From Mycobacterium sp. (GTDB lineage Bacteria > Actinomycetota > Actinomycetes > Mycobacteriales > Mycobacteriaceae): a stretch of DNA of 64,000 nt. The stretch spans positions 12,201-76,200 of the forward strand of contig JBBATG010000001.1 of assembly GCA_040398865.1 (NCBI GenBank), given 5' to 3'. The translations under genes were made by a program, and so were the position numbers. The notes under the pieces are model-generated. The model saw only the letters and a program-made list of their open reading frames with translations, did not search any database and was not told where the DNA came from. This document shows positions 3,033-34,066 of this stretch, piece by piece; positions within the stretch are counted from its first letter, which is position 1; the number at the start of each line of letters is the position of its first letter.

Positions 3033-3182
3033 TGCTGGCCCTGGTGCCTCTCGATGCTGAAACAGTGCGCCCCATCGTCCCATCTCCAGCAGGGAAGGCC
3101 AAACCGGGCGTGTGCTCAGTCGGCCGGCGCCGGGAGTCTGAGGCGCTGCGGAGGTGGGCCTGCCAGGTCGTAGGCTCTGGCA

Positions 3183-4160
3183 ATGATCGAAGCCGGCCGT
3201 ATCCTGTCGATCTGGCGCTATCCGGTCAAGTCGATGGCCGGTGAACGCCTCGACAGCGCCACGTTTTCGGACCTGGGACTTCACGCCGACCGCACCTGGG
3301 CGGTGCGCGACGTGGAACTCAACGCCACGACCAGCGCCAAGCGGCTACCCGGGCTGATGTTCTGCACGGCGCGCTACGCGCAACCGCCCGGGCCCGACGC
3401 CGGCCCAGGCCACGCCCCCGAGGTGATCATCGGGTTCCCCGACGGCCGGGAGTGCTCCAGTGCCGACCCCTCGATCCATCACGCACTGTCGGAGTACCTG
3501 GATCGCGACGTGGAACTGCGGCCGCTGCCCGCCATCGATGATCGCGACGACTACCGCGCGCCCGTGGCGACGAAGAATGATCTGCGCACGATCTTCGGAC
3601 TTGGCCCCGATGAGCCGCTGCCTGATCTGTCGATGTTCCCGGTGCGCAAACTCGCCGAGATCACCCGGTACACCACGCCGCTGGGCAGTTACGTCGACGC
3701 CTACCCGGTGCACCTTCTCACCGTGCAGTCACTGCAGGCGATGGCCACGCTGGCGCCGGGCTCGGACTTCGATGTGCGACGCTTCCGGCCCACGATCCTC
3801 ATCGACTCACCCGCGCAGACCGATCAGCCCGAATTGGACTGGTGCGGCGGGGTTCTGCACGCCGCCGAGGCCGACTTCGCACCGCTGATTCCCACCATCC
3901 GGTGTGTCATGCCGACCCATCCGCAACCCGACCTGGACCGCGATCCCGCCGTCACCCGCACCATCGCCGCCCACGCCCGCCGGTGCCTGGGGGTGTACGG
4001 CACGGTGCTCAAGGGCGGCCGTGTCAGTGTGGGAGAGACTCTGCGGGTCGATCTGCCGAACCGTTCGGCGGTGGCGGCCACCGCGGGTTCGGCGGCCGCG
4101 ACGGCCAAGCGGGTGCTGATGCGTGCCGTGTCGGTAGCGCTGCCCCGCGGCAAGCGCTGA
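3183..4160 (+). CDS. MOSC domain protein (MOSC_N beta-barrel + MOSC)
   Basis: IWRYPVKSMAGE, DRTWAV, RRFRPTILI, conserved Cys in PTIRCVMPT. Confidence 0.9.
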   Translation: MIEAGRILSIWRYPVKSMAGERLDSATFSDLGLHADRTWAVRDVELNATTSAKRLPGLMFCTARYAQPPGPDAGPGHAPEVIIGFPDGRECSSADPSIHHALSEYLDRDVELRPLPAIDDRDDYRAPVATKNDLRTIFGLGPDEPLPDLSMFPVRKLAEITRYTTPLGSYVDAYPVHLLTVQSLQAMATLAPGSDFDVRRFRPTILIDSPAQTDQPELDWCGGVLHAAEADFAPLIPTIRCVMPTHPQPDLDRDPAVTRTIAAHARRCLGVYGTVLKGGRVSVGETLRVDLPNRSAVAATAGSAAATAKRVLMRAVSVALPRGKR

Positions 4161-4182
4161 GCATCGCCTATGCCCAGGCGAT

Positions 4183-5142
4183 CTAGATATAGGGCGCAAC
4201 GGCCTGCACTCGCGCCCGCCACCAGCTGACCCGGGCGGGGTCGGCGGCGAATCGCTCCAGCAGTGCCGGGTCCGGTCCCGGGGGCATCGGAGCGACCGGG
4301 AGGTGTCCGTCCACCGGGATCAGTGACCGGCCCGAGCTGACCAGATCACCGCTGAGCAGGGCCACGCCGCCCAGTTGATGGGCGAACCCGGGGTCGGGCA
4401 GCACCCCGGCCAAAGCCAACCCGCCGGCAGAGCCGATGGTGCTTTCCCGCGCGCTGCTCACCACACACGGCAGACCGCAGTGGTCCGCGAACCGCAGCGC
4501 GCGGCGCACCCCCCCGAGTGCGGATACGGTCAGCACGGCGATATCGGCGGCCTCGGCCAGGTTCATATCCAGCGGGTGATCGGATTCGCAGACCAGTCGG
4601 CCGACCGCGACGGGAACGTCCAATCGCTTTCTGGCGGAGACGGTTTCGACCAGTGTCGTACAGGGGTGTTCGATGAACTCCAGTCCCCCGGCGGCGCGCG
4701 CCAGCACCGGCACCGCGGCCACGGCACCGTCGGCATCCCAGGCCCCGCCGGCATCACAGCGGATAGCACCATCGGGTCCGAGGGCGTCACGGACCGCTTC
4801 CAGGCGGGCGATGTCGTCGGCCAGCGAGCCTGCTCCCACCGTGACCGCCGCAGTCCGGCATCCGGAGGCGGTGACGATCTGATGGGCCCGATCGGCTCCC
4901 ACGGCCGGCACCGTCACCGCGACCGGCACCCGGCCGCGGACCGGGTCGGGCCAGCCGACGGTGCCGACCTCGATGGCGGCGGTCAGCCAGCGGGCGGCGC
5001 CGCGTTCATCGAGATGGCGCGGTGCGCTGAACTCCCCCCAGCCCTGCGGACCCTCAAGCAGCATGCCCTCGCAGACCTCCGGGCCATCGGTGAGCGGGAT
5101 GGCGAACACTGGTGCCGCATCGAAGTCGATCCAGGTCTTCAC
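4183..5142 (-). CDS. o-succinylbenzoate synthase (MenC)-like enolase superfamily protein with degenerate active site
   Basis: EGPQGWGEF, RVPVAVTVPAV, VVSSARES, WWRARV match mycobacterial MenC; catalytic KxK reads AVT and the third metal ligand (ADE) reads VGR. Confidence 0.8.
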   Translation of the reverse strand: MKTWIDFDAAPVFAIPLTDGPEVCEGMLLEGPQGWGEFSAPRHLDERGAARWLTAAIEVGTVGWPDPVRGRVPVAVTVPAVGADRAHQIVTASGCRTAAVTVGAGSLADDIARLEAVRDALGPDGAIRCDAGGAWDADGAVAAVPVLARAAGGLEFIEHPCTTLVETVSARKRLDVPVAVGRLVCESDHPLDMNLAEAADIAVLTVSALGGVRRALRFADHCGLPCVVSSARESTIGSAGGLALAGVLPDPGFAHQLGGVALLSGDLVSSGRSLIPVDGHLPVAPMPPGPDPALLERFAADPARVSWWRARVQAVAPYI

Positions 5143-5153
5143 TTCCGCCCCGA

Positions 5154-6038
5154 CTAGGCCGTCGGGGACCAGTAGCCGAGCAACTCGGCGAAGGTGTCGA
5201 ATGCCGCCGCGGAAGCGCCGTAGGTGGCTTCGAGGTGGATACTCAGCGGGTAGCCCAGGTCAGCGACATCGTCGATGATCCGCTTGTACAGATCGAGCAT
5301 CAGCGCGCGCTTGCGCTCCGGCTCGCTGCCGGCCAGGGTCCGCACGAATTCCTGTTCGGCGGCCACCGCCGCGTTTCCGGGATCCTGGATCAGCCAATTC
5401 ACCAGCCCCACAGTGCTTTCCATCTTCGGCACGAACCCGAAGGACAGCAGGATCTCCGGGCGGTGGTCGCTGGCCGCGGCGAAGTTGCGTAGGAACCCGA
5501 CGATCGCGTCGGAGTACAGCAGCTGGGTCAGCGCGTAGGTGGCGCCCTGGTCGCACTTGAACCCGAACCGGCCGATCTCCCCCTCGCGGGTCGGGATCAG
5601 CACCACACCGCGGTTGGCAACGAGATCGCGGTAGATGTTGAGGGCGTCGGTGGGTGGTACGCCGGTGCCCTCGCCGTCACTCATGGTGCGCGGCACGCCC
5701 ACGAACGCGATCCCCTCAACGCCGGCCGCCAGCAGATCGCCCAGACGCCGGCGCAGGACCGGTTCGCTCGAGAACGAGGTCACCTGGGTGCACAACCCGT
5801 GCACACCCGGCATCTCCGGGGCGATCAGCGACCAGTACTCGAGCACATCGAGTTTCGGCTTCATCTCGACCGGTCGACCTGAGTCCTCGTCGATCATCCC
5901 GGGGATCATCACGTGCCCGATGCGCACATCAGCCGCCGCCGAGAGGCGCATCACCTTTCGGGCTTCGCCGAGTCGCTGTTCGCGATCGCGCTCGACGTTG
6001 GGCGGCACAAGCTCGAAGGCCACCGTGTTGAAAGGCAC
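5154..6038 (-). CDS. Mycobacterial flavin-independent methylenetetrahydrofolate reductase (Rv2172c/MSMEG_6596 family)
   Basis: NTVAFELVPPN, HVMIPGMI, GLCTQVT, FVGVPR, TQLLYSD, LSFGFVPK, IHLEATYG match Rv2172c as recalled. Confidence 0.9.
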   Translation of the reverse strand: MPFNTVAFELVPPNVERDREQRLGEARKVMRLSAAADVRIGHVMIPGMIDEDSGRPVEMKPKLDVLEYWSLIAPEMPGVHGLCTQVTSFSSEPVLRRRLGDLLAAGVEGIAFVGVPRTMSDGEGTGVPPTDALNIYRDLVANRGVVLIPTREGEIGRFGFKCDQGATYALTQLLYSDAIVGFLRNFAAASDHRPEILLSFGFVPKMESTVGLVNWLIQDPGNAAVAAEQEFVRTLAGSEPERKRALMLDLYKRIIDDVADLGYPLSIHLEATYGASAAAFDTFAELLGYWSPTA

Positions 6039-6138: not shown

Positions 6139-8816
<2,678 letters not shown>

Positions 8817-19275: not shown

Positions 19276-19866
19276 GTGACGACCCGGTGGCAGGATGCGG
19301 AGGTGTCGCGCGGCGCCGAGTACGACGCCCGCTGGGAGGAGATGGCGGCCTCCGGCGACAACATCCACGGCGAAGCCGACCTTGTCGGTTTCCTGCTCGC
19401 GGGGAGCGGCGGACACCGCGTGCTCGACGCCGGTTGCGGTACCGGACGGGTCGCCATCGAACTGTCCCGGCGCGGATTTGCGGTGGCGGCCGTGGACGCC
19501 GATCCGGAGATGCTCGCCGCAGCGCGGGAGAAGGCACCGCAATTATCCTGGGCGCGTTGTGATCTGGCTGATGGAAAGGGCCTCGCCCGCGCCTCGCCCG
19601 GACCCTTCGATCTGATCCTGCTCGCCGGCAACGTGATGATCTTCCTCGCCCCGGACACCGAGCCGAAGGTGCTGGCGAATCTGGCTCGCCGGCTGGCACC
19701 CGGCGGGCTGCTGGTAGCCGGCTTCAGCCTGAACGATGATCTGAGCGTCACGCGGTACGACGCGCTGGCCGCCGGCGCCGGACTGCAGCTTGAGCATCGG
19801 TGGGCGACATGGGACCGCCAGCCGTTCGCCGATGGTGACTACGCGGTGTCGGTGCATCGCCGATGA
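19276..19866 (+). CDS. Class I SAM-dependent methyltransferase
   Basis: VLDAGCGTGR, VDAD, AGNVMIFL. Confidence 0.9.
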   Translation: MTTRWQDAEVSRGAEYDARWEEMAASGDNIHGEADLVGFLLAGSGGHRVLDAGCGTGRVAIELSRRGFAVAAVDADPEMLAAAREKAPQLSWARCDLADGKGLARASPGPFDLILLAGNVMIFLAPDTEPKVLANLARRLAPGGLLVAGFSLNDDLSVTRYDALAAGAGLQLEHRWATWDRQPFADGDYAVSVHRR

Positions 19867-20960
19867 GGCTGCGTACCAGCGCCGGGCCGGATCAGTACCA
19901 CGCCTTCACCACCCGGCTGACGGTCGGCGGCTATCAGGCTCTCACCATGCGGGTGGTGGCCGGCTGCATCCTGGCGCTGGCGCTGCCGTCCATCCTCGCC
20001 GGACTGGCGCCCAGCGTGACGCCGTGGCCGGGTTTCCGGATCGTCTACACGGTGATCGCGGTGGCCTGCCTGGGGCTCGCGGTTCCGTGGCTGCGGTACC
20101 GATGGCCCACGCGCCGGGAGTCCGTGACGATTGTGATCGTGGGCACCCTCGCCCTCGCGGTGGGATGCCTGGCGACCGTCGACCCGCTGGCCGGCATGGT
20201 GACCGCTTCGGCCTTCTCCTTCGTCCTCGGCTTCGCCGCGCTGTTTCACAGCGCCAAGCTGCTGGCATTCACCATCGCCGTCGCCGCGGTCACGGTCGTG
20301 GTGACGACGGTGCGCATCGCCGTCGACGAAGTGAACACGGCCATCGCCGTGGCGACTCCGGTGATCCTGCTTTACGTCGTGGTCACGTTCGCCTGCCGGA
20401 CCGTCGCCCGGGTGAGTACCGCCGGGGAGGTCCAGTACGACATCGACTCGCTGACCGGCCTGCTGATGCGCGAGGCGTTCTACGAAAGAACGTCCACCCT
20501 GATCGGCGCCCGCCATCGCGATGAAGATCGCTACCTCGTCATCGCGGTCGTCGACATCGACGGGTTCGCGGCGATCAGCAGCGTGCAGGGCGGCCGCGGC
20601 ACCAACGATGCGCAGGTGGCGGTGAGCCAGGCGCTGCGCGAGACCGCCCGCCGGGAAGCGGTGCTCGCCCACGTGGGCTCCGGCGAGTTCCTGATCGCCG
20701 ATGTGTTCACGATCGCCGACCCCGCCCCGCTCATCGAGCGGGTGCGCGGCGCCATCGCGGCGACCCCGGCGGGAATCACCGCCAGTATCGGAGTGGTCAG
20801 CACCCAGTTGCAGCCGCTGGTCACTCGCCCACCACATGACGTGCTCGATGAGCTGATCGCGCTGGGCTCCGCGGCGATGGCCGATGCCCGCCGCCGAGGC
20901 GGGAACCAGTCGCGCTACCTGCTGGACCCGAAGCTGGAATCAGGCGAATCAGCCGAGTGA
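19863..20960 (+). CDS. Membrane protein with degenerate GGDEF domain
   Basis: Several TM helices, then DSLTGLL, DIDGF, signature GSGEF, TASIG. Confidence 0.85.
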
Positions 20961-22246
20961 GGTAACGAGCGCGCCGTAACCCCGCCGCCGTCGAGCAGCG
21001 CTCGACGCAGCATGTGCATCGCCACGGTGGTCGACCGGTCGCGGACATCTGCGCGTTCTCCCGGGATCTGCACGCGCCGTGTCACGGTCGGGCCACCACG
21101 CAGCATGACGCAGAACCACACCGTGCCCACCGGCTTGTCCGGCGTACCGCCCCCCGGGCCGGCCACGCCCGTGATCGCCACCGCCGTGTCGGCATCGAAG
21201 CGCTCGATCGCACCGGACGCCATCGCCTCGGCCACCTCGGCCGACACCGCCCCGTGCTCGGCGATCAGCGCCGGATCCACGCCCAGCACAGCGGACTTGG
21301 CTTCGTTGGCGTAGGCCACCGCGCCGCCGGCGACGTACGCCGAGGAGCCGGGCCGGTCGGTCAGGCGTGCAGCCACCAGACCGGATGTGCACGATTCCGC
21401 GGTCGCGATGCGACGGCCGGTGAGCAGCGCGGCCACCTGATCGTCCACCGAGGCGCCATCCTCGGAGAAGATCGCCTCGCCGTGGCGTTCGCGGACGAGC
21501 TCCAGTAGTACGCGGTAGGCATCGGCGCCGTGCGGTTCGTACCGGGTGACCATCTCCAGTTCGCCGCGCCGCAGACAGGTGGTGATCTCCAGCGCGTCGA
21601 AATCCGGGATGCGCTGGGCCTCCCGCAGGGTATCGGCAAGACCGGACTCGGCCACGCCGAACATCAGCACGGTGTCCTGCCGGTACACCGTCCGTCCGGC
21701 GATTGCGCGGGCCACCTCCTCAGTGGCCAAGGCCGCCGGCCACATACCCTGCAATTCCTTGGGCGGTCCCGGCAGAACCACCACCGTCGGGGTGCCCCCA
21801 ATCACCGCCCCGGGTGCGGTGCCCACCGGATCCAGTACGGCAGCCCCCTCGGGAACCATGGCCTGTTTGCGGTTGGCTTCGCGCACGGCGGTGGTGTCGA
21901 TGTCGGGGAACCGCGCCATCCACTTCGCCACAATGGCCGCGATCCGATCCTCCATCGCCTCATCGAGGCGCAACCCGCGACCGCAGAACCGGGCTACGCA
22001 GGACAGCGTCATATCGTCGGCGGTCGGGCCCAGCCCGCCGGTGGTGACGATCAGGTCCACGCCCTCGTCGCGAAGGAAGCGCAACTGCGCTTCGATATCG
22101 GCTTCCCGGTCACCGCAGATCGTGATGTGGGCCAGTTCCACCCCGAGTTCGAGCAGTCGGTCGGCCACCCACGGACCGTTGCGGTCAGCGACCCGCCCGG
22201 TCAGCACCTCGGTTCCGGTGACCAGGATCCCTGCGCGGGCGCTCAT
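20915..22246 (-). CDS. cinA: Competence/damage-inducible protein A (MoCF/pyrophosphatase + NMN amidohydrolase PncC)
   Basis: [44 protein letters not shown]. Confidence 0.95.
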
Positions 22247-22911
22247 CGTGTGACGGTGGCGCCGGGAGCGCGCACCACCAGCGGCACAGCCGGGAACTGG
22301 GCGGCCATCTCCGAACGCGAGCGCCGCAGCGCGGCGGTCCCATAGCCCTTCTTGCGATGCGCGGGGTGTATCCAGATCCGCAGGTTCACCTCGCCGCCGG
22401 ACAGCTCACCGAAGACCATGCCGACTTTGTCCTCACCGTCCACGGCGACGAACCAGGCTGCCTCCTCGGCGCGCAAACGGGCGATGGCCGAACGGATTTC
22501 GTCATCGAGATCCCCCGCCGGGGAGCCGGACCCGTCCCCTGCCGCGCCGATCTCCTCGGTTCGTGCTGAGAAGATGTCGCGATCTGCCTCATGGGAGAAC
22601 GGCCGCAGTCGCAGGCTGTCATCGGCGCTGGCGGGCCGCTCACCGACCGCGAAGCTCAACTGGCTGTTCAGATCCTCCAGTTCGGCGGCGATGCGCCGGC
22701 GCGACTCAGAGGTCAACTGGTCGAAGGACATGTTCATGACGGCTTCGGCACCGATCCGCGGTGTGCCGAGCAGGGCCGTGATGGAGTCGATCGCGGCTGC
22801 CCGGTCAGGGGCGTCGACGATCGTGTCGAGCACCTCGTGGCGGCGTTCGAGTGCGGTCATCAGGGCATCGGCGATGGCGCGCCGGCTGACGGCACGGTCC
22901 TGTTCGGTCAT
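22243..22911 (-). CDS. GyrA C-gate-like helical domain fused to a GNAT acetyltransferase domain
   Basis: Residues ~9-82 align gap-free with the recalled GyrA segment [19 protein letters not shown]...[11 protein letters not shown]...; C-terminal [11 protein letters not shown] acetyl-CoA motif; ATGA overlap with cinA. Confidence 0.8.
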
Positions 22912-23000
22912 GGGGTAAGCCTAAGCCGACCGCACCGCCGGCGTGACGACGAGCCACGTCACGCCCGGTGGCCTCGGTCCGCTCTGCCAAGATGTAGCCC

Positions 23001-25790
23001 GTGGCGAAGCGGATGCTGGCGATCTTCGCCATCATCGCGCTGGTGCTGTGCGCCGCGGATTTTCGCGCGCTGCCCCCGGCCCCGTCATCGCCCGCCGCCA
23101 CGGATACCGTGCTGGCCGACGGCTGGCGGCTGAGTTCGGCGCGCACGGTGACCGCCGGCGGGGCGGCGGTCTCCGCGGCCGGCTACGACGATTCGAGCTG
23201 GGTGCCGGTGCGCCGCATGCCGGGTACGGTGCTGGGCATCCTGCAGGACGCCGGGGTGTATCCGAACCTCTACTACGGCAAAAATCTGCTGACCGAGGTT
23301 CCCCAGGATCTGTACAAACAGGACTGGTGGTACCGCACCACGTTCAACGCGCCCGCGGGCCTGCGCACCTACCGGCTGGACTTCCCCGGTATCAACTACC
23401 GAGCCGACATCTGGCTCAACGGCCACCGCATCGCCGACAGCCGGGAGATCGTCGGCATGTACAACGCCCACGATCTCGACGTCACCGGACGGATCATCGC
23501 AGGAGGGCGAAACACCCTGGCGGTCAAGGTCACCCCGGAGCGCTCGATCCAGGACGTCGATGGTGTGGAACTCGCCGACAGTTGGTTCGACTGGATCAAC
23601 TGGCGTTACCTGGGATACCAGGCCGCCGGCACTCCCCCGGGATACCGGGCCACCGGCGCGACTCCCGGCAGTGGCATCTCCTTTGTGTCCGACCGTAACG
23701 CGGGCATCTTCAAGCCCGTGCGGTTGAGGGCCTTCGGCGCGGTGGATATCGGTCCGTCCGCGGTCAACACCGAACTACCGCTGCCCGATCTCGTCCATGC
23801 CCGGCTGACCGTGCACTCTCAGGTGCGCAACGAGACCGACGAACCGGTGCGCGGGGTGCTGACCGCCACCATCACTCGCCCGGCCAGACCCACCGTCACC
23901 GTTGCGGCACCGGTCTCGCTGGGCCCCCGCGAGCGTCGCGAGATCTCCCTGCGCCCATCCGATTTCGAACAGCTCACCATCGCGGATCCGGACCTCTGGT
24001 GGCCCCACACCATGGGTGATCCGGCCCTGTATGGCCTTCGCCTTGATTTCAGCCAGGGCCGCACCGTCACCACTTCGCGATCCCTACGCTTCGGGATCCG
24101 CACCGTCTCCGCCGGCCGCGACACGGACGGCCCGGGTGCCGGGGATGACGGTGGCGACTTCTACCTGCTGGTCAACGGTCGTGACTTTCCGGTCCGCGGC
24201 GCCACCTACACCCCGGATCTGCTGTATACCTACGACCCCGACCGCGACGCGGCGATCCTGCGCTACGTCAAAGACCTCGGCCTCAACATGCTGCGCCTGG
24301 AGTCCAAGATCGCCTCGGAACGGTTCGTCGAGATGGCCGACGAGATGGGCATCCCGCTGATGTACGGCTGGATGTGCTGCAATCAATGGGAACGCTGGCA
24401 GCAGTGGGATGCCGAGGACCGCCGCGTGGCTCAGGAGAGCCTGCGTTCACAGATCGACATGCTGGCCCCGCACGCCTCGGTCTTCCTCTGGGCCAACGGC
24501 AGCGACGGCCGCCCGCCTGATGAGGTGCTCGCCACCTACCGCCGGGTCCTGGCGGATGCGCATTGGCAGAACGCCGTCGTCGACACGGTGTCCGCGTTCT
24601 CCCGCGGCCCTGACGGCAAGCCGCTGTGGGATGGCATTCAGATGGCCGGGCCGTACAGCTGGCGTCCGCCCACCTACTGGTTCTCCGGACGCTATCCGGC
24701 CGCCCGCGGCGCGTCGGCCGAACAGGGCGACAACGAACACATCCCGCCGTACGCCAGCCTGCGCACGTTCATCCCGCCGGAGAAGCTGTGGCCGATCAAC
24801 GACACCTGGTACTTCCACGCCGGCTCCAACCAGCAGAACTCCACCCTCACCAACATCCGTCGGGTGATCGACCGGCGCTACGGTTTGTCGACCAACGCCC
24901 AGATGTTCGCTGACAAAGCCCAACTGGCGCATTACGAGTCCACCCGGGCCCAGTTCGAGTCCTTCGCCGCCGGCGGGTGGGACACGCACAAGATGACCGT
25001 CTACTGGATGCTCAACAGCCACTGGCCGTCGTTCTTCGGCAATATCTTCGACTACTACCTGCGGCCCGGCGGCGCCTACTACGGCGCTAAGAAGGGACTC
25101 CGCCCGTTATCGGTGGTGTTCGACTCCTACGCAACCGGCGACCGCCGCGAGGGCAAGGTGACCGTGGTCAACCAGGGCCCGGAGGCGAAAAGCGATCTGC
25201 GCGTGCGGGTCCGGGTCTACGACCTCGGCGGCAGGTTGCGTGAAGACCGCGCTGCCGACGGCATCGACGTCGATTCCGGCGCCGCGGCACCGGCGCTGAC
25301 GCTGGCACCGGGGCCCGCCGACTCCCCGGTGTTCTTCGTCCGCTGCGAACTGCTCGACAGTGCCGGCGCGGTGCTGGCCGAGAACGTCTACTGGCAGTCG
25401 CAGCGACCCGATGACCTCGGTCCGCGGTCCAATGACGCGGCGTTCGACACCAGACAGGTCAGTTGGGCCGATATGACCGCCCTGGCGGTCATGCCCAGGG
25501 CAGCCCTCGATGTCACGGCACGTCCCGGCGAGAACGGTGCGGTGAGCATCCGGCTGCACAACCCGACATCCCGGGTCGCTTTTTTCCAGCGGGCCGAGCT
25601 GCTCGCCGCATCCGGGAGGCCCGAGACAGCTGATGAGATCCTGCCCATCGAGTACGACGACAACTACGTCACCGTGTTTCCCGGTGAGACGGTCGAGGTG
25701 CGGGGCCGCGTGCCGGCGGGCGGCCCCGCACCGGTATGGGTGCGGGTCACCGGACACAACAGCGCGCCAGTGGTGGTTCCGGTGGGCTGA
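23001..25790 (+). CDS. Secreted glycoside hydrolase family 2, exo-beta-D-glucosaminidase (CsxA)-like
   Basis: Signal peptide; FPGINYRADIWLNG, NMLRLE, GWMCCNQWE, NGSD (Asp acid/base as in CsxA), SAEQG (nucleophile), YWMLN. Confidence 0.85.
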   Translation: MAKRMLAIFAIIALVLCAADFRALPPAPSSPAATDTVLADGWRLSSARTVTAGGAAVSAAGYDDSSWVPVRRMPGTVLGILQDAGVYPNLYYGKNLLTEVPQDLYKQDWWYRTTFNAPAGLRTYRLDFPGINYRADIWLNGHRIADSREIVGMYNAHDLDVTGRIIAGGRNTLAVKVTPERSIQDVDGVELADSWFDWINWRYLGYQAAGTPPGYRATGATPGSGISFVSDRNAGIFKPVRLRAFGAVDIGPSAVNTELPLPDLVHARLTVHSQVRNETDEPVRGVLTATITRPARPTVTVAAPVSLGPRERREISLRPSDFEQLTIADPDLWWPHTMGDPALYGLRLDFSQGRTVTTSRSLRFGIRTVSAGRDTDGPGAGDDGGDFYLLVNGRDFPVRGATYTPDLLYTYDPDRDAAILRYVKDLGLNMLRLESKIASERFVEMADEMGIPLMYGWMCCNQWERWQQWDAEDRRVAQESLRSQIDMLAPHASVFLWANGSDGRPPDEVLATYRRVLADAHWQNAVVDTVSAFSRGPDGKPLWDGIQMAGPYSWRPPTYWFSGRYPAARGASAEQGDNEHIPPYASLRTFIPPEKLWPINDTWYFHAGSNQQNSTLTNIRRVIDRRYGLSTNAQMFADKAQLAHYESTRAQFESFAAGGWDTHKMTVYWMLNSHWPSFFGNIFDYYLRPGGAYYGAKKGLRPLSVVFDSYATGDRREGKVTVVNQGPEAKSDLRVRVRVYDLGGRLREDRAADGIDVDSGAAAPALTLAPGPADSPVFFVRCELLDSAGAVLAENVYWQSQRPDDLGPRSNDAAFDTRQVSWADMTALAVMPRAALDVTARPGENGAVSIRLHNPTSRVAFFQRAELLAASGRPETADEILPIEYDDNYVTVFPGETVEVRGRVPAGGPAPVWVRVTGHNSAPVVVPVG

Positions 25791-29783: not shown

Positions 29784-30239
29784 ATGACGACGGGTGCGGT
29801 GGCCGCGGCCGCCGGGTTCCTGCTGGGCGTGCTCTGGATCGACCTCATGTTCGACAGCCAGGTCCGCTCCGGACGCGGTGTGCTCGACGAGTCCGTACTG
29901 GAGTCAATCGCCGGCTATTACCGCCGCGCGACGACCACCAGCCAGCCCCGGGGCGCGCTCATCGCGGTGGTGATGGTGGCCCTGCTCGCACTGCTGGGTG
30001 CCGAAGCGGTGACCGGTGACCGTCCCGGCTGGCTGCTGGTGCTCTCGGCGGGGTTGGCCGGCGGCCCGATCCTGCTGGCGTGGGTGCGGACGGTCGGCAA
30101 TGCGGTGCGGTTGGGCACCCGCCGGGACGACGCCGACGAACAGAGCCGCCTGGCCCGGGCGATCTACCGTGACCACCTGGTGTGCCTGGCCGCCATTGCG
30201 GCATTCCTCGCGCTGTGGCTGATCCCGGTACTAGGCTGA
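29784..30239 (+). CDS. Hypothetical membrane protein
   Basis: Four hydrophobic segments; LWIDLMFDSQV, IAGYYRR, IYRDHLVC. Confidence 0.75.
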   Translation: MTTGAVAAAAGFLLGVLWIDLMFDSQVRSGRGVLDESVLESIAGYYRRATTTSQPRGALIAVVMVALLALLGAEAVTGDRPGWLLVLSAGLAGGPILLAWVRTVGNAVRLGTRRDDADEQSRLARAIYRDHLVCLAAIAAFLALWLIPVLG

Positions 30240-30245
30240 GGAAAC

Positions 30246-30259
30246 TAGAACACGTTTCA
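30246..30259. promoter_or_regulatory. KstR operator
   Basis: TAGAACACGTTTCA matches TnnAACnnGTTnnA, 27 bp upstream of the Rv1894c-like gene. Confidence 0.8.
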
Positions 30260-30286
30260 GTCGGCAGCATCCCGGAGGAGCCGCTC

Positions 30287-31420
30287 ATGCACACCCCACT
30301 CTGCGATGAACTCGGCATTGAGTTCCCGATCTTCGCCTTTACCCACTGCCGCGACGTGGTCGTCGCGGTCAGCAGGGCCGGCGGATTCGGCGTACTCGGC
30401 GCCGTCGGCTTCACCCCCGAACAGCTCGAGATCGAGTGCGCCTGGATCGACGAGCACATCGGCGATCATCCCTATGGCGTCGACATCGTGATCCCGAACA
30501 AGTACGAGGGCATGAACGCCGACATGTCCGGTGACGAACTCGCCGAGATGCTCAAGAAGATGGTTCCCCAACAGCACCTGGACTTCGCCAAGAAGATCCT
30601 CGCCGACCACGGCGTGCCCACCGCCGACGCGGACTCCAACGCCCTGCAGCTGCTCGGCTGGACCGAGGCGACCGCGACACCCCAGGTCGAGGTCGCGTTG
30701 CAGCATCCGAAGGTCACCCTGATCGCCAACGCGCTGGGCACCCCGCCGGTGGAGATGATCAAGCACATCCACGCGGCGGGCCGCAAGGTGGCCGCGCTGT
30801 GCGGGTCGCCGGCCCAGGCCCTCAAACATGCCGAGGCCGACGTCGACATCATCATCGCCCAGGGTGGCGAAGGCGGTGGCCACTGTGGTGACGTCGGCTC
30901 GATCGTGCTGTGGCCGCAGGCGGTCAAGGCGGTGGCGCCCCGACCGGTGCTCGCCGCCGGCGGCATCGGCAGCGGTGAGCAGATCGCGGCCGCGCTGGCG
31001 CTGGGTTGCCAGGGCACCTGGTCGGGCTCGCAGTGGCTGATGGTCGAGGAGGCCCACAACACCCCCGTGCAGCAGGCCGCCTACGTCAAGGCCAGCAGCC
31101 GCGACACCGTGCGCAGCCGGTCCTTCACCGGTAAGCCGTGCCGCATGCTGCGCAACGAATGGACCCAGGCCTGGGAAACCGCGGGCAACCCCGAACCGCT
31201 GGGGATGCCGCTGCAGTACATGGTGTCCGGGATGGCCGTCGCCGCCACGAACAAATACCCCAACGAGACCGTCGATGTGGCGTTCAACCCGGTCGGTCAG
31301 GTCGTCGGCCAGTTCACCAGGGTCGAGAAGAGCGCCGCCGTGATCGAACGCTGGGTCAAGGAGTACCTCGACGCCACCGGTCGTCTCGAGCAGATCAACG
31401 AGGCCGCTGCGGCCGTATGA
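30287..31420 (+). CDS. Nitronate monooxygenase family FMN protein (Rv1894c-like)
   Basis: MHTPLCDELGIEFPIFAF, QGGEGGGH, AAGGIG, WSGSQWL. Confidence 0.9.
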   Translation: MHTPLCDELGIEFPIFAFTHCRDVVVAVSRAGGFGVLGAVGFTPEQLEIECAWIDEHIGDHPYGVDIVIPNKYEGMNADMSGDELAEMLKKMVPQQHLDFAKKILADHGVPTADADSNALQLLGWTEATATPQVEVALQHPKVTLIANALGTPPVEMIKHIHAAGRKVAALCGSPAQALKHAEADVDIIIAQGGEGGGHCGDVGSIVLWPQAVKAVAPRPVLAAGGIGSGEQIAAALALGCQGTWSGSQWLMVEEAHNTPVQQAAYVKASSRDTVRSRSFTGKPCRMLRNEWTQAWETAGNPEPLGMPLQYMVSGMAVAATNKYPNETVDVAFNPVGQVVGQFTRVEKSAAVIERWVKEYLDATGRLEQINEAAAAV

Positions 31421-32791: not shown

Positions 32792-34066
32792 ATGTCTGAT
32801 CCGGACCTGCCCCCGGGGTTCGACTTCACCGACCCCGATCTCAACGCCGAGCGTCTGCCCGTCGAGGAGCTCGCCACTCTGCGCCGCACCGCCCCGATCT
32901 GGTGGAATGCCCAACCCGTCGGGGTGGGCGGTTTCGACGACGGCGGTTACTGGGTGGTCACCAAACACAAAGACGTCAAGGAGATCTCGCGGCGCAGCGA
33001 CGTGTTCTCCAGCCTGGAGAAGACCGCCATCCCGAGGTATAAGGACGGCACCGCCGGTCAGCACATAGAACAGGGCAAGTTCGTCCTGCTCAACATGGAC
33101 GCCCCGCATCACACACATCTGCGCAAGATCATCTCTCGCGCCTTCACGCCGCGGGCTATCGAGCAGCTGCGCGAGGAACTGCGCCAGCGCGCCGATGAGA
33201 TCGTCCGGGCCGCCGTGCGCAACGGCTCCGGCGACTTCGTCGAGCAGGTCTCCTGCGAGCTGCCGTTGCAGGCGATCGCCGGGCTGATGGGTGTGCCGCA
33301 GGACGAGCGTAAAAAGCTGTTCGACTGGTCGAACCAGATGGTCGGCGATCAGGACCCGGAGTTCGAAGGCAATGACGCTCTCACCGCCTCGGTCGAGCTG
33401 ATCATGTACGGCATGGCGATGGCCGCAGACCGCGCCGCCAATCCGGGCGACGATCTCGTGACGAAGCTGGTGCAGGCCGACGTCGACGGCCACAAACTCT
33501 CCGACGACGAGTTCGGCTTCTTCGTGATCCTGCTCGCGGTGGCCGGCAACGAGACCACCCGCAATTCCATCACCCACGGCATGGTGGCCTTCACCGAATT
33601 CCCCGAGCAGTGGGAGTTGTACAAGAAACTGCGGCCCGTCACCGCCGTGGACGAGATCGTGCGCTGGGCCACGCCGGTCACCTCCTTCCAGCGAACGGCC
33701 CTGGTCGACACGGAACTGGGGGGTGTCACGATCAAGAAGGGCCAGCGGGTGGTGATGGTCTACCGGTCGGCCAATTTCGACGAAGAGGTGTTTGACGACC
33801 CGTTCGCCTTCAACGTCCTGCGTGACCCCAACCCGCATGTCGGCTTCGGCGGGACCGGCGCGCACTACTGCATCGGGGCCAACCTGGCCCGCATGACCAT
33901 CGACCTGATGTTCAACGCCATCGCGGACCACATGCCCGACCTCACCCCGGTGACGGCGCCGCAGCGGCTGCGGTCCGGCTGGCTCAACGGCATCAAGCAC
34001 TGGGATGTGGACTACACCGGCACCGGCAAATCCACTGTGGCCCATGCCGACACCATCACCGGGTGA
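32792..34066 (+). CDS. cyp125: Cytochrome P450, CYP125 family (steroid C26 monooxygenase-like)
   Basis: LPPGFDFTDPD, LLNMDAPHH, VAGNETT, EIVRW, FGGTGAHYCIG. Confidence 0.85.
   Translation: MSDPDLPPGFDFTDPDLNAERLPVEELATLRRTAPIWWNAQPVGVGGFDDGGYWVVTKHKDVKEISRRSDVFSSLEKTAIPRYKDGTAGQHIEQGKFVLLNMDAPHHTHLRKIISRAFTPRAIEQLREELRQRADEIVRAAVRNGSGDFVEQVSCELPLQAIAGLMGVPQDERKKLFDWSNQMVGDQDPEFEGNDALTASVELIMYGMAMAADRAANPGDDLVTKLVQADVDGHKLSDDEFGFFVILLAVAGNETTRNSITHGMVAFTEFPEQWELYKKLRPVTAVDEIVRWATPVTSFQRTALVDTELGGVTIKKGQRVVMVYRSANFDEEVFDDPFAFNVLRDPNPHVGFGGTGAHYCIGANLARMTIDLMFNAIADHMPDLTPVTAPQRLRSGWLNGIKHWDVDYTGTGKSTVAHADTITG

Follow-up and report, generated by a model that had tools for sequence, protein, structure and literature searches.

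A gene on the minus strand of a 64,000-nucleotide stretch of Mycobacterium sp. DNA (GenBank assembly GCA_040398865.1, contig JBBATG010000001.1, positions 12,201 to 76,200 of the forward strand; the whole stretch is called the window below) joins a copy of the GyrA C-gate, the primary dimer interface of gyrase, to a truncated GNAT domain in a single two-domain protein of 222 amino acids. We refer to this open reading frame, at positions 22243–22911, and to its product as X. Both parts are recognizable by homology and by fold, both are under purifying selection, and the truncation of the GNAT part is shared by all relatives, while the gene neighborhood varies from lineage to lineage. Our favored reading, to which we give a probability of roughly 0.45 as a whole statement, is that an exapted GyrA C-gate serves as a dimerization module for a minimal GNAT, which would bind acyl-CoA and either transfer or sense the acyl group; the dimerization part alone is more likely than the statement as a whole.

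The helical module spans residues 3–86 of X (22654–22905, minus strand) and corresponds approximately to residues 379–462 of Mycobacterium tuberculosis GyrA, that is, to the C-gate plus stubs of its two flanking helices. The initial annotation of this gene had lined up the N-terminal segment with the GyrA C-gate without gaps, and the alignment holds: profile and Foldseek comparisons both gave significant matches to GyrA. At the level of the single sequence the signal is weak. The NCBIfam GyrA equivalog models match residues 5–85 at model positions 364–444 (E=2.5e-5), and PF00521 matches at positions 335–411 of 432 (E=0.022; 14 bits, under the 31-bit gathering cut-off). The single-sequence match in the PDB, to S. 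aureus GyrA at E of about 0.09, is less significant still. All three of these matches are gapless, and BLASTP of residues 1–95 against the M. tuberculosis GyrA segment returned no alignment. The homology is settled by the profiles, together with a shuffle test. A profile built from 60 module sequences retrieved M. tuberculosis GyrA (3ILW, 5BS8 and others) with E=1.2e-16 over residues 381–463, again without gaps, followed by the GyrA proteins of S. aureus and S. pneumoniae and then by ParC; it also matched the isolated E. coli GyrA14 fragment in its complex with CcdB (1X75, 4ELY, 4ELZ). The gapless register that pairs X residues 5–87 with GyrA residues 381–463 contains 21 identities in 83 positions (25%) and reaches a BLOSUM62 score of 63, the top of all gapless offsets and a value attained by none of 2000 shuffles (z=7.7).

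The structural comparison leads to the same conclusion. In an AlphaFold2 model of X built on a 44-sequence alignment, the module consists of helices at residues 3–22, 24–33, 37–48, 52–59, 63–66 and 68–90, with block means of the predicted local distance difference test (pLDDT) of 93–97 over residues 11–60 and lower values at both module ends. Foldseek superimposed this model on S. aureus GyrA with a root mean square deviation of 1.1 Å over 83–87 residues, at 25–27% identity. In M. tuberculosis GyrA, residues 401–444 form the C-gate, with a primary dimer interface of 1029–1120 Å2, and residues 356–400 and 445–490 form a helix bundle (Piton et al., PMC2923608). Combining these limits with the register, in which residue n of X equals residue n+376 of GyrA, places the entire C-gate at residues 25–68 of X (22708–22839, minus strand) and leaves a stub of about 20 residues of each long helix. 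Where GyrA has a conserved RRL motif, the window protein has DQL. A flexible linker at residues 87–99 (22615–22653, minus strand; pLDDT below 50 over residues 87–96) connects the module to the GNAT part. The profile and structural evidence is decisive, and residues ~3–86 are thus homologous to the GyrA C-gate.

The module is not restricted to X. A search with residues 1–95 against 1.84 billion representative proteins gave 177 matches which, besides X orthologs, include dozens of stand-alone proteins of 85–110 amino acids with 35–42% identity in phmmer (for example P0167, P0174, P0188, P0190, P0257 and P0314, the last from Nocardioides pantholopis). Other matches are fusions or tandem arrays (P0158/P0185/P0212, P0159, P0200/P0222 and P0172), in which the module follows DUF3710, two modules follow two Clp_N repeats (Nocardia iowensis), the module follows an unknown domain of about 210 amino acids, or it is joined to a second copy of itself. 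It thus lies N-terminal of the GNAT part in X and C-terminal of DUF3710, Clp_N and the unknown domain, and its occurrence at either end of unrelated domains and in tandem pairs identifies it as a portable unit, as expected for a domain that self-associates. No full-length GyrA was present among the best 150 matches of residues 1–95, which indicates that the direct ancestor of X belonged to this family of small proteins and was not gyrA itself. The relationship of the family to X and to GyrA was measured from both sides: hhalign aligned the X family with the stand-alone family over 86 gapless columns (probability 99.6%, E=7e-25), the stand-alone members match the GyrA equivalog models with E down to 5e-16, and the Clp_N fusion protein exceeds the PF00521 gathering score with 48 bits. 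Stand-alone members are labeled "DNA gyrase subunit A" in IMG, and two of them have weak matches to "DNA topoisomerase II" families in PHROGs. Neither Pfam nor NCBIfam has a model for the family, and we found no paper on it or on the combination of a GyrA module with a GNAT. A single-sequence AlphaFold prediction of the tandem protein P0172, in which an intramolecular pseudo-dimer was sought, had a pLDDT of 52.6.

The second part of X, residues 100–215 (22267–22614, minus strand), adopts a GNAT fold from β1 to β5. PF13302, PF00583 and PF13508 all match it over their gathering cut-offs, and all three matches stop before the end of the profile (positions 2–109 of 138, 24–84 of 116 and 3–54 of 84). 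The AlphaFold2 model shows β1 at residues 100–104, helices at 111–121 and 135–147, strands at 151–158, 161–171 and 174–181, α3 at 190–205 and β5 at 211–213; the chain then ends at residue 222, and in all relatives the end lies 7–10 residues past β5. Profiles, models and alignments therefore agree with the earlier description of a GNAT without motif B, since the C-terminal arm formed by α4, β6 and β7 is missing from X and from every other member. X consequently has the defining features of a GNAT over its N-terminal two-thirds and lacks those of the C-terminal third, and the presence of the same truncation in Mycobacteriaceae, Rhodococcus, Gordonia and Tomitella shows that it is old and conserved and not an assembly artifact. 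Longer "family members" of 234–533 amino acids in the representative library turned out to be frameshifted or chimeric assemblies and not full-length GNATs.

What remains of the GNAT is strongly conserved. Motif A, R186-K-K-G-Y-G-T192 (22336–22356, minus strand), is predicted to form the acyl-CoA pyrophosphate loop between β4 and α3, and its residues R186, G189, G191 and T192 are invariant in alignments of 81 and 44 sequences. L102, R103, F105, D110, R117, E120, D126, R145, E149 and W153 are likewise invariant across the four groups, as are G168-E169-L170, W180, E201, F206-P207 and R214. The Gly/Asp-rich loop between α1 and α2 (residues 122–134; 22510–22548, minus strand) has a pLDDT below 50, yet it shows the lowest ratio of nonsynonymous to synonymous substitutions (dN/dS) of the whole protein, with D126 invariant and G127 and S128 nearly so. 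In GNATs, the α1-α2 loop lines the acceptor site, and the loop of X is probably ligand- or partner-binding. The best Foldseek matches of the C-terminal domain are the small GNATs RibT, AAC(6')-Ig, SpeG and DpA, and PHROGs assigns X to a generic acetyltransferase family (E=2.7e-4). A toxin of the TacT/AtaT-like GNAT toxin-antitoxin type, which combines a complete GNAT with a neighboring RHH/DUF1778 antitoxin gene, was considered and ruled out by the truncated GNAT, the lack of a conserved small partner gene and the lack of a PADLOC match; PADLOC gave no match for any protein tested, and PHROGs gave no pointer to defense or phage functions.

Relatives of X are encoded in at least 169 species-level genomes of the Mycobacteriales, and about 3000 protein clusters were matched at E≤1e-3. 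From these genomes we fetched 80 Mycobacteriaceae loci, and outside this family we sampled six loci, from three Rhodococcus species (L087, L090, L091), Gordonia (L088) and two Tomitella (L089, L092). A length of 217–225 amino acids is kept in all relatives, and the mean column identity of the 81-sequence alignment is 78%. Pairwise Nei-Gojobori estimates, which are rough because dS is near saturation, give a dN/dS of about 0.2–0.25 overall, with about 0.25 for residues 3–86, 0.32 for the linker, about 0.19 for the GNAT core and 0.14 for the α1-α2 loop, so that both parts of the protein are under purifying selection. A metagenome-assembled Mycobacterium sp. genome is about 97% identical to the window at the protein level. 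In a search of sequencing runs, the window DNA was present in freshwater and estuarine metagenomes and in one coded organism, and the only RNA run in the list, a single-sample metatranscriptome, did not contain it. Public databases carry X as "GNAT family N-acetyltransferase" or "RimJ/RimL".

Conservation extends to the region in front of the gene. A −10-like hexamer, TAGGCT, lies at −12 to −7, 6 nucleotides 5′ of the ATG (22918–22923, minus strand), and an in-frame stop is found three codons upstream of that ATG. The sequence TA[GC]GCT stands 6 nucleotides before the conserved MT[DE] start in 58 of the 80 loci and 7 nucleotides before it in most of the others, and it is kept in every mycobacterial context, whatever the neighboring genes. 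Because the TACGCT form is frequent, an AGG Shine-Dalgarno reading of the hexamer is ruled out. The conserved TAnnnT element thus supports a leaderless transcript in mycobacteria, and the leaderless start that had been proposed from the TAGGCT of this one gene now appears probable for nearly all of the 80 loci. Such a start matches the leaderless mycobacterial gene architecture reported by Cortes in 2013 and by Shell in 2015. Gordonia retains the hexamer as TACTAT, and Rhodococcus and Tomitella have Shine-Dalgarno-like sequences instead. Rfam and promoter/terminator scans gave no matches.

We then turned to the genes around X. In the window, the gene is followed on the same strand by a full-length cinA with MoCF_biosynth and CinA/PncC domains (20915–22246, minus strand), which scores 473 bits on NF001813 (equivalog cut-off 379). 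The stop of X and the start of cinA overlap by ATGA, as originally stated, seen as TCAT at 22243–22246 of the plus strand. The initial annotation had suggested a topoisomerase-modulating arm of the cinA operon, an idea that the comparison of loci does not support. cinA lies downstream of X in only 39 of the 80 Mycobacteriaceae loci and in none of the six from other genera. Even within the cinA context the spacing varies, from the overlap in the window through direct abutment in L001 and L002 (where the tblastn matches share one base) to 10–120 nucleotides elsewhere. Many of these loci carry an insert between the two genes on the same strand, either a 416-amino-acid open reading frame with no Pfam, PHROGs or PADLOC match (L007–L009, L011, L013, L015–L017 and L026; ~6670–7930) or a gene of about 0.5 kb for a small membrane protein of about 155 amino acids (L020, 6680–7144). 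The remaining 41 loci fall into at least five further contexts, and in none of the contexts examined does gyrA, gyrB, a topoisomerase gene or a toxin-like partner lie beside X. Coupling to cinA is therefore an operon arrangement local to a single Mycolicibacterium-like lineage that does not define the family, and we reject a cinA-specific function of X.

Among the further contexts, the arrangement dxr, rip1, ispG, an Rv2867c-like GNAT gene, X, PBP-lipo and DUF1707 occurs in 13 loci (for example L037, L040, L047, L063, L064, L071, L073, L074 and L078). In Mycobacteroides, X lies between an NlpC/P60 gene and MarR, furA and katG; in M. celatum and M. kyorinense, between an M24 peptidase and an SDR gene; in M. 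triplex and M. montefiorense, between an FGGY kinase gene and LCM methyltransferase genes; and in the M. llatzerense group, between an unknown gene and genes for an inositol monophosphatase and an mshC-like protein. In M. tuberculosis, the slot between the Rv2867c-like GNAT and PBP-lipo genes is presumably occupied by the relFG toxin-antitoxin pair, which suggests that the dxr-rip1-ispG slot is a variable insertion site. MAB_3168c is the neighboring Rv2867c-like GNAT and was ruled out as an X, so that the M. abscessus phenotypes reported in PMC3695912 belong to MAB_3168c and not to X. As to the other genes near X in the window, cinA shares 46 nucleotides (20915–20960) at its 3′ end with the 3′ end of a convergent gene for a membrane GGDEF-domain protein (19863–20960, plus strand), and 5′ of the latter lie translationally coupled plus-strand genes for an S-adenosylmethionine-dependent methyltransferase and a YaaA-type peroxide-stress protein. 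On the other side, 89 nucleotides from X and divergent from it, a gene at 23001–25790 encodes a GH2 exo-beta-D-glucosaminidase-like protein of 929 amino acids whose N-terminus carries a hydrophobic, signal-like stretch; most loci of the cinA context have this gene together with X, some of them in the reverse orientation.

Outside the Mycobacteriaceae, a single neighborhood recurs. All six Rhodococcus, Gordonia and Tomitella loci place X (~5001–5660 in each) within a steroid-catabolism cluster, in the layout of a divergent CYP125-like cytochrome P450 gene, then a thiolase gene, then X. The thiolase scores 729 bits on the NF005889 equivalog "steroid 3-ketoacyl-CoA thiolase" (cut-off 515), and five of the six loci have X directly downstream of this fadA5 and on its strand; in Gordonia (L088), the thiolase gene and X are separated by opposite-strand genes for a ferredoxin and an AMP-binding ligase. 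Four loci contain a ddn-like deazaflavin nitroreductase gene, which precedes X in three of them and follows it in the fourth, and in four of the six (L089–L092) X is followed by genes for an SDR, an enoyl-CoA hydratase, two CoA-transferase subunits and an NMO-family enzyme. In M. tuberculosis gene names, we take this segment to be the cyp125-fadA5-ddn ... echA20-ipdABC part of the actinobacterial steroid cluster. The fadA5 neighborhood is the only gene arrangement of X conserved across genera, and it points toward acyl-CoA and steroid metabolism and away from DNA topology. The window itself contains a P450 gene paired with an NMO-family gene (30182–31420 / 32792–34066) at ~7–10 kb from X, the P450 being 64% identical to the Rhodococcus cyp125-like gene. 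Similarly, in L068 the P450 and NMO genes (81–1511, 3052–4179) lie 1.5–4 kb from X, in the order P450, intervening genes, NMO, epoxide hydrolase, X and cinA. These pairs may be a remnant of the steroid-cluster neighborhood.

How, then, might X work? We propose that it is an autonomous protein in which the exapted exit-gate copy, with its ~20 residues of each flanking helix, would act as a strong homodimerization module. The GNAT part keeps the acyl-CoA pyrophosphate loop and the conserved α1-α2 substrate loop and has lost α4, β6 and β7, and the C-gate dimer would hold the two half-GNAT domains together. Joined in this way, the pair might take up acetyl-CoA or some other acyl-CoA, either to pass the acyl group on to an acceptor or to sense it. 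The GyrA14 fragment of E. coli GyrA is dimeric in solution. This fragment, of 132–156 amino acids and spanning the module region, has been crystallized on its own account (1X75, 4ELY, 4ELZ), and the C-gates of gyrases are highly stable (PMC12041858). With an interface that self-associates in gyrase, is stable there, crystallizes as a separate fragment and recurs as a portable module, the simplest reading is a dimerization domain, and the evidence favors this first alternative of the initial annotation, a borrowed dimerization module. Several points weigh against the proposal. Homodimerization, like acyl-CoA binding and catalysis, is a property that we infer; a GNAT without α4, β6 and β7 is missing a portion of the site that normally binds CoA and the acceptor, and it may be inactive; PDB sequences searched with a profile of the GNAT part gave no match, so that only the fold comparison worked; and the steroid-cluster synteny is based on six loci. 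Moreover, the module exists in many stand-alone copies of ~90 amino acids, and since a bare dimerization domain has no obvious function, it probably binds something besides itself.

These objections lead to the other explanations. The loss of α4, β6 and β7 in every member would also be expected if X were a non-catalytic pseudo-GNAT, whose truncated domain binds acyl-CoA or nothing and whose dimer acts as a sensor or scaffold, for instance one that regulates a partner enzyme through the acetyl- or propionyl-CoA from FadA5-type thiolysis. That the pyrophosphate loop is still invariant and that the gene lies near CoA-thioester enzymes in three genera both agree with this idea, whereas the conserved α1-α2 loop and the acidic residues E169 and E174 of the β3-β4 region fit a working active site equally well, and very small GNATs such as RibT do exist; we consider it doubtful. 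The stand-alone copies, in turn, suggest a function in trans, and a 90-residue copy of a dimer interface must bind something, for which GyrA is the obvious candidate: the module is homologous to a GyrA surface for which a second copy of that surface is the only firmly established partner, and its closest solved relatives are mycobacterial GyrA proteins. It could pair with the GyrA C-gate, either forming a heterodimer with GyrA that is nascent or transiently open or acting as a wedge, and thereby recruit the GNAT to gyrase or a gyrase partner, or slow strand passage directly. The C-gate is also a known and predicted target of regulators, as CcdB binds GyrA14 (1X75, 4ELY, 4ELZ) and DUF3046 (Rv2738c) is predicted to bind the mycobacterial C-gate (bioRxiv 10.64898/2026.07.15.738315, a 2026 preprint). 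We nevertheless regard this explanation as unlikely, given that no gyrase or topoisomerase gene lies beside X or the stand-alone modules in the contexts examined, that the module is no more than 25% identical to M. tuberculosis GyrA and has DQL in place of RRL, that an outside competitor is disfavored by very stable gyrase C-gates (PMC12041858), that the GNAT is truncated, and that the sole cross-genus synteny is with steroid and acyl-CoA catabolism. The broader version, in which the module of X, the stand-alone proteins and the fusions alike would bind the gyrase exit gate in trans and X would bring an acyl-CoA-binding domain to gyrase, is equally unlikely.

A dimeric module could also be imagined as a decoy that mimics the exit gate and titrates CcdB-like toxins, DUF3046-type proteins or natural products, protecting or tuning gyrase. 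Its fold is that of the surface to which CcdB-type toxins bind and for which DUF3046 is a predicted ligand, and stand-alone copies are common. Against this, the module stops ~20 residues into each flanking helix and is shorter than GyrA14; the CcdB site lies, we assume, near R462 of E. coli GyrA, and most of that pocket is probably lacking. The contexts of three stand-alone modules contained neither a toxin-like partner nor a topoisomerase gene, and PADLOC and PHROGs gave no defense matches, which makes a decoy a very improbable role. As for the suspicion that the GyrA resemblance merely reflects chance or the composition of Ala-/Arg-rich helices, it could appeal to the failed pairwise BLASTP and to the Pfam match under the gathering score. 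It is refuted by the profile match, the superposition, the shuffles, and the hhalign link to a stand-alone family with one member well over the PF00521 gathering score, and we give it practically no weight.

Whichever explanation applies, X is a GNAT with an exapted topoisomerase interface, and an undescribed domain family stands behind its module. If the module simply dimerizes, as we favor, a topoisomerase interface has been reused as a general dimerization domain, together with a conserved minimal GNAT fold, and the fadA5 synteny offers a concrete lead toward steroid and acyl-CoA metabolism. Gyrase is the sole type IIA topoisomerase of M. tuberculosis and the target of fluoroquinolones, and regulation at its exit gate is only beginning to be recognized. 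Should the modules engage gyrase instead, they would open a new approach to drug tolerance and to the control of supercoiling, and Actinobacteria would possess an unrecognized class of endogenous gyrase modulators built from gyrase's own dimer interface.

Compared with known systems, X shares with the GyrA C-gate and GyrA14 (M. tuberculosis GyrA 381–463; 1X75) a homologous sequence, the same helical fold and the entire primary dimer interface. It differs in that the module has about 85 residues against more than 800 in GyrA, without the winged-helix domain, catalytic tyrosine, tower, full coiled-coil and C-terminal domain; judged by this inventory of its sequence, X is not a topoisomerase. The module is, in addition, joined to a GNAT, and its nearest relatives are small stand-alone proteins and not GyrA. 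CcdB, which binds GyrA14, and DUF3046/Rv2738c, which is predicted to bind the gate, involve the same gyrase surface and would be functional analogs if X or the stand-alone proteins act on gyrase, but their folds are unrelated, and X is itself a copy of the gate that they bind. With the RimJ/RimL-type GNATs (PF13302, also PF00583 and PF13508), X has in common the "LRLRPF" start of β1, strands β2 to β4, the R-x-x-G-x-G-T motif and α3; unlike them it ends after β5, without α4, β6 and β7, and carries a long conserved Gly/Asp-rich α1-α2 loop and an N-terminal topoisomerase-derived domain. The Rv2867c/MAB_3168c-type proteins (DUF4081 plus FR47-like) are also mycobacterial members of the GNAT superfamily and adjoin X in 13 of the 80 loci, but they belong to another family, whose C-terminal GNAT is complete and which has no module resembling GyrA. 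Finally, RibT of B. subtilis, a minimal GNAT of 123 amino acids (5XXR/5XXS), is the top Foldseek match of the C-terminal domain (E=1.9e-5; TM score 0.62–0.64 normalized to RibT). It is only 18% identical and has no fused dimerization module, and it sets the precedent that very short GNATs fold stably.

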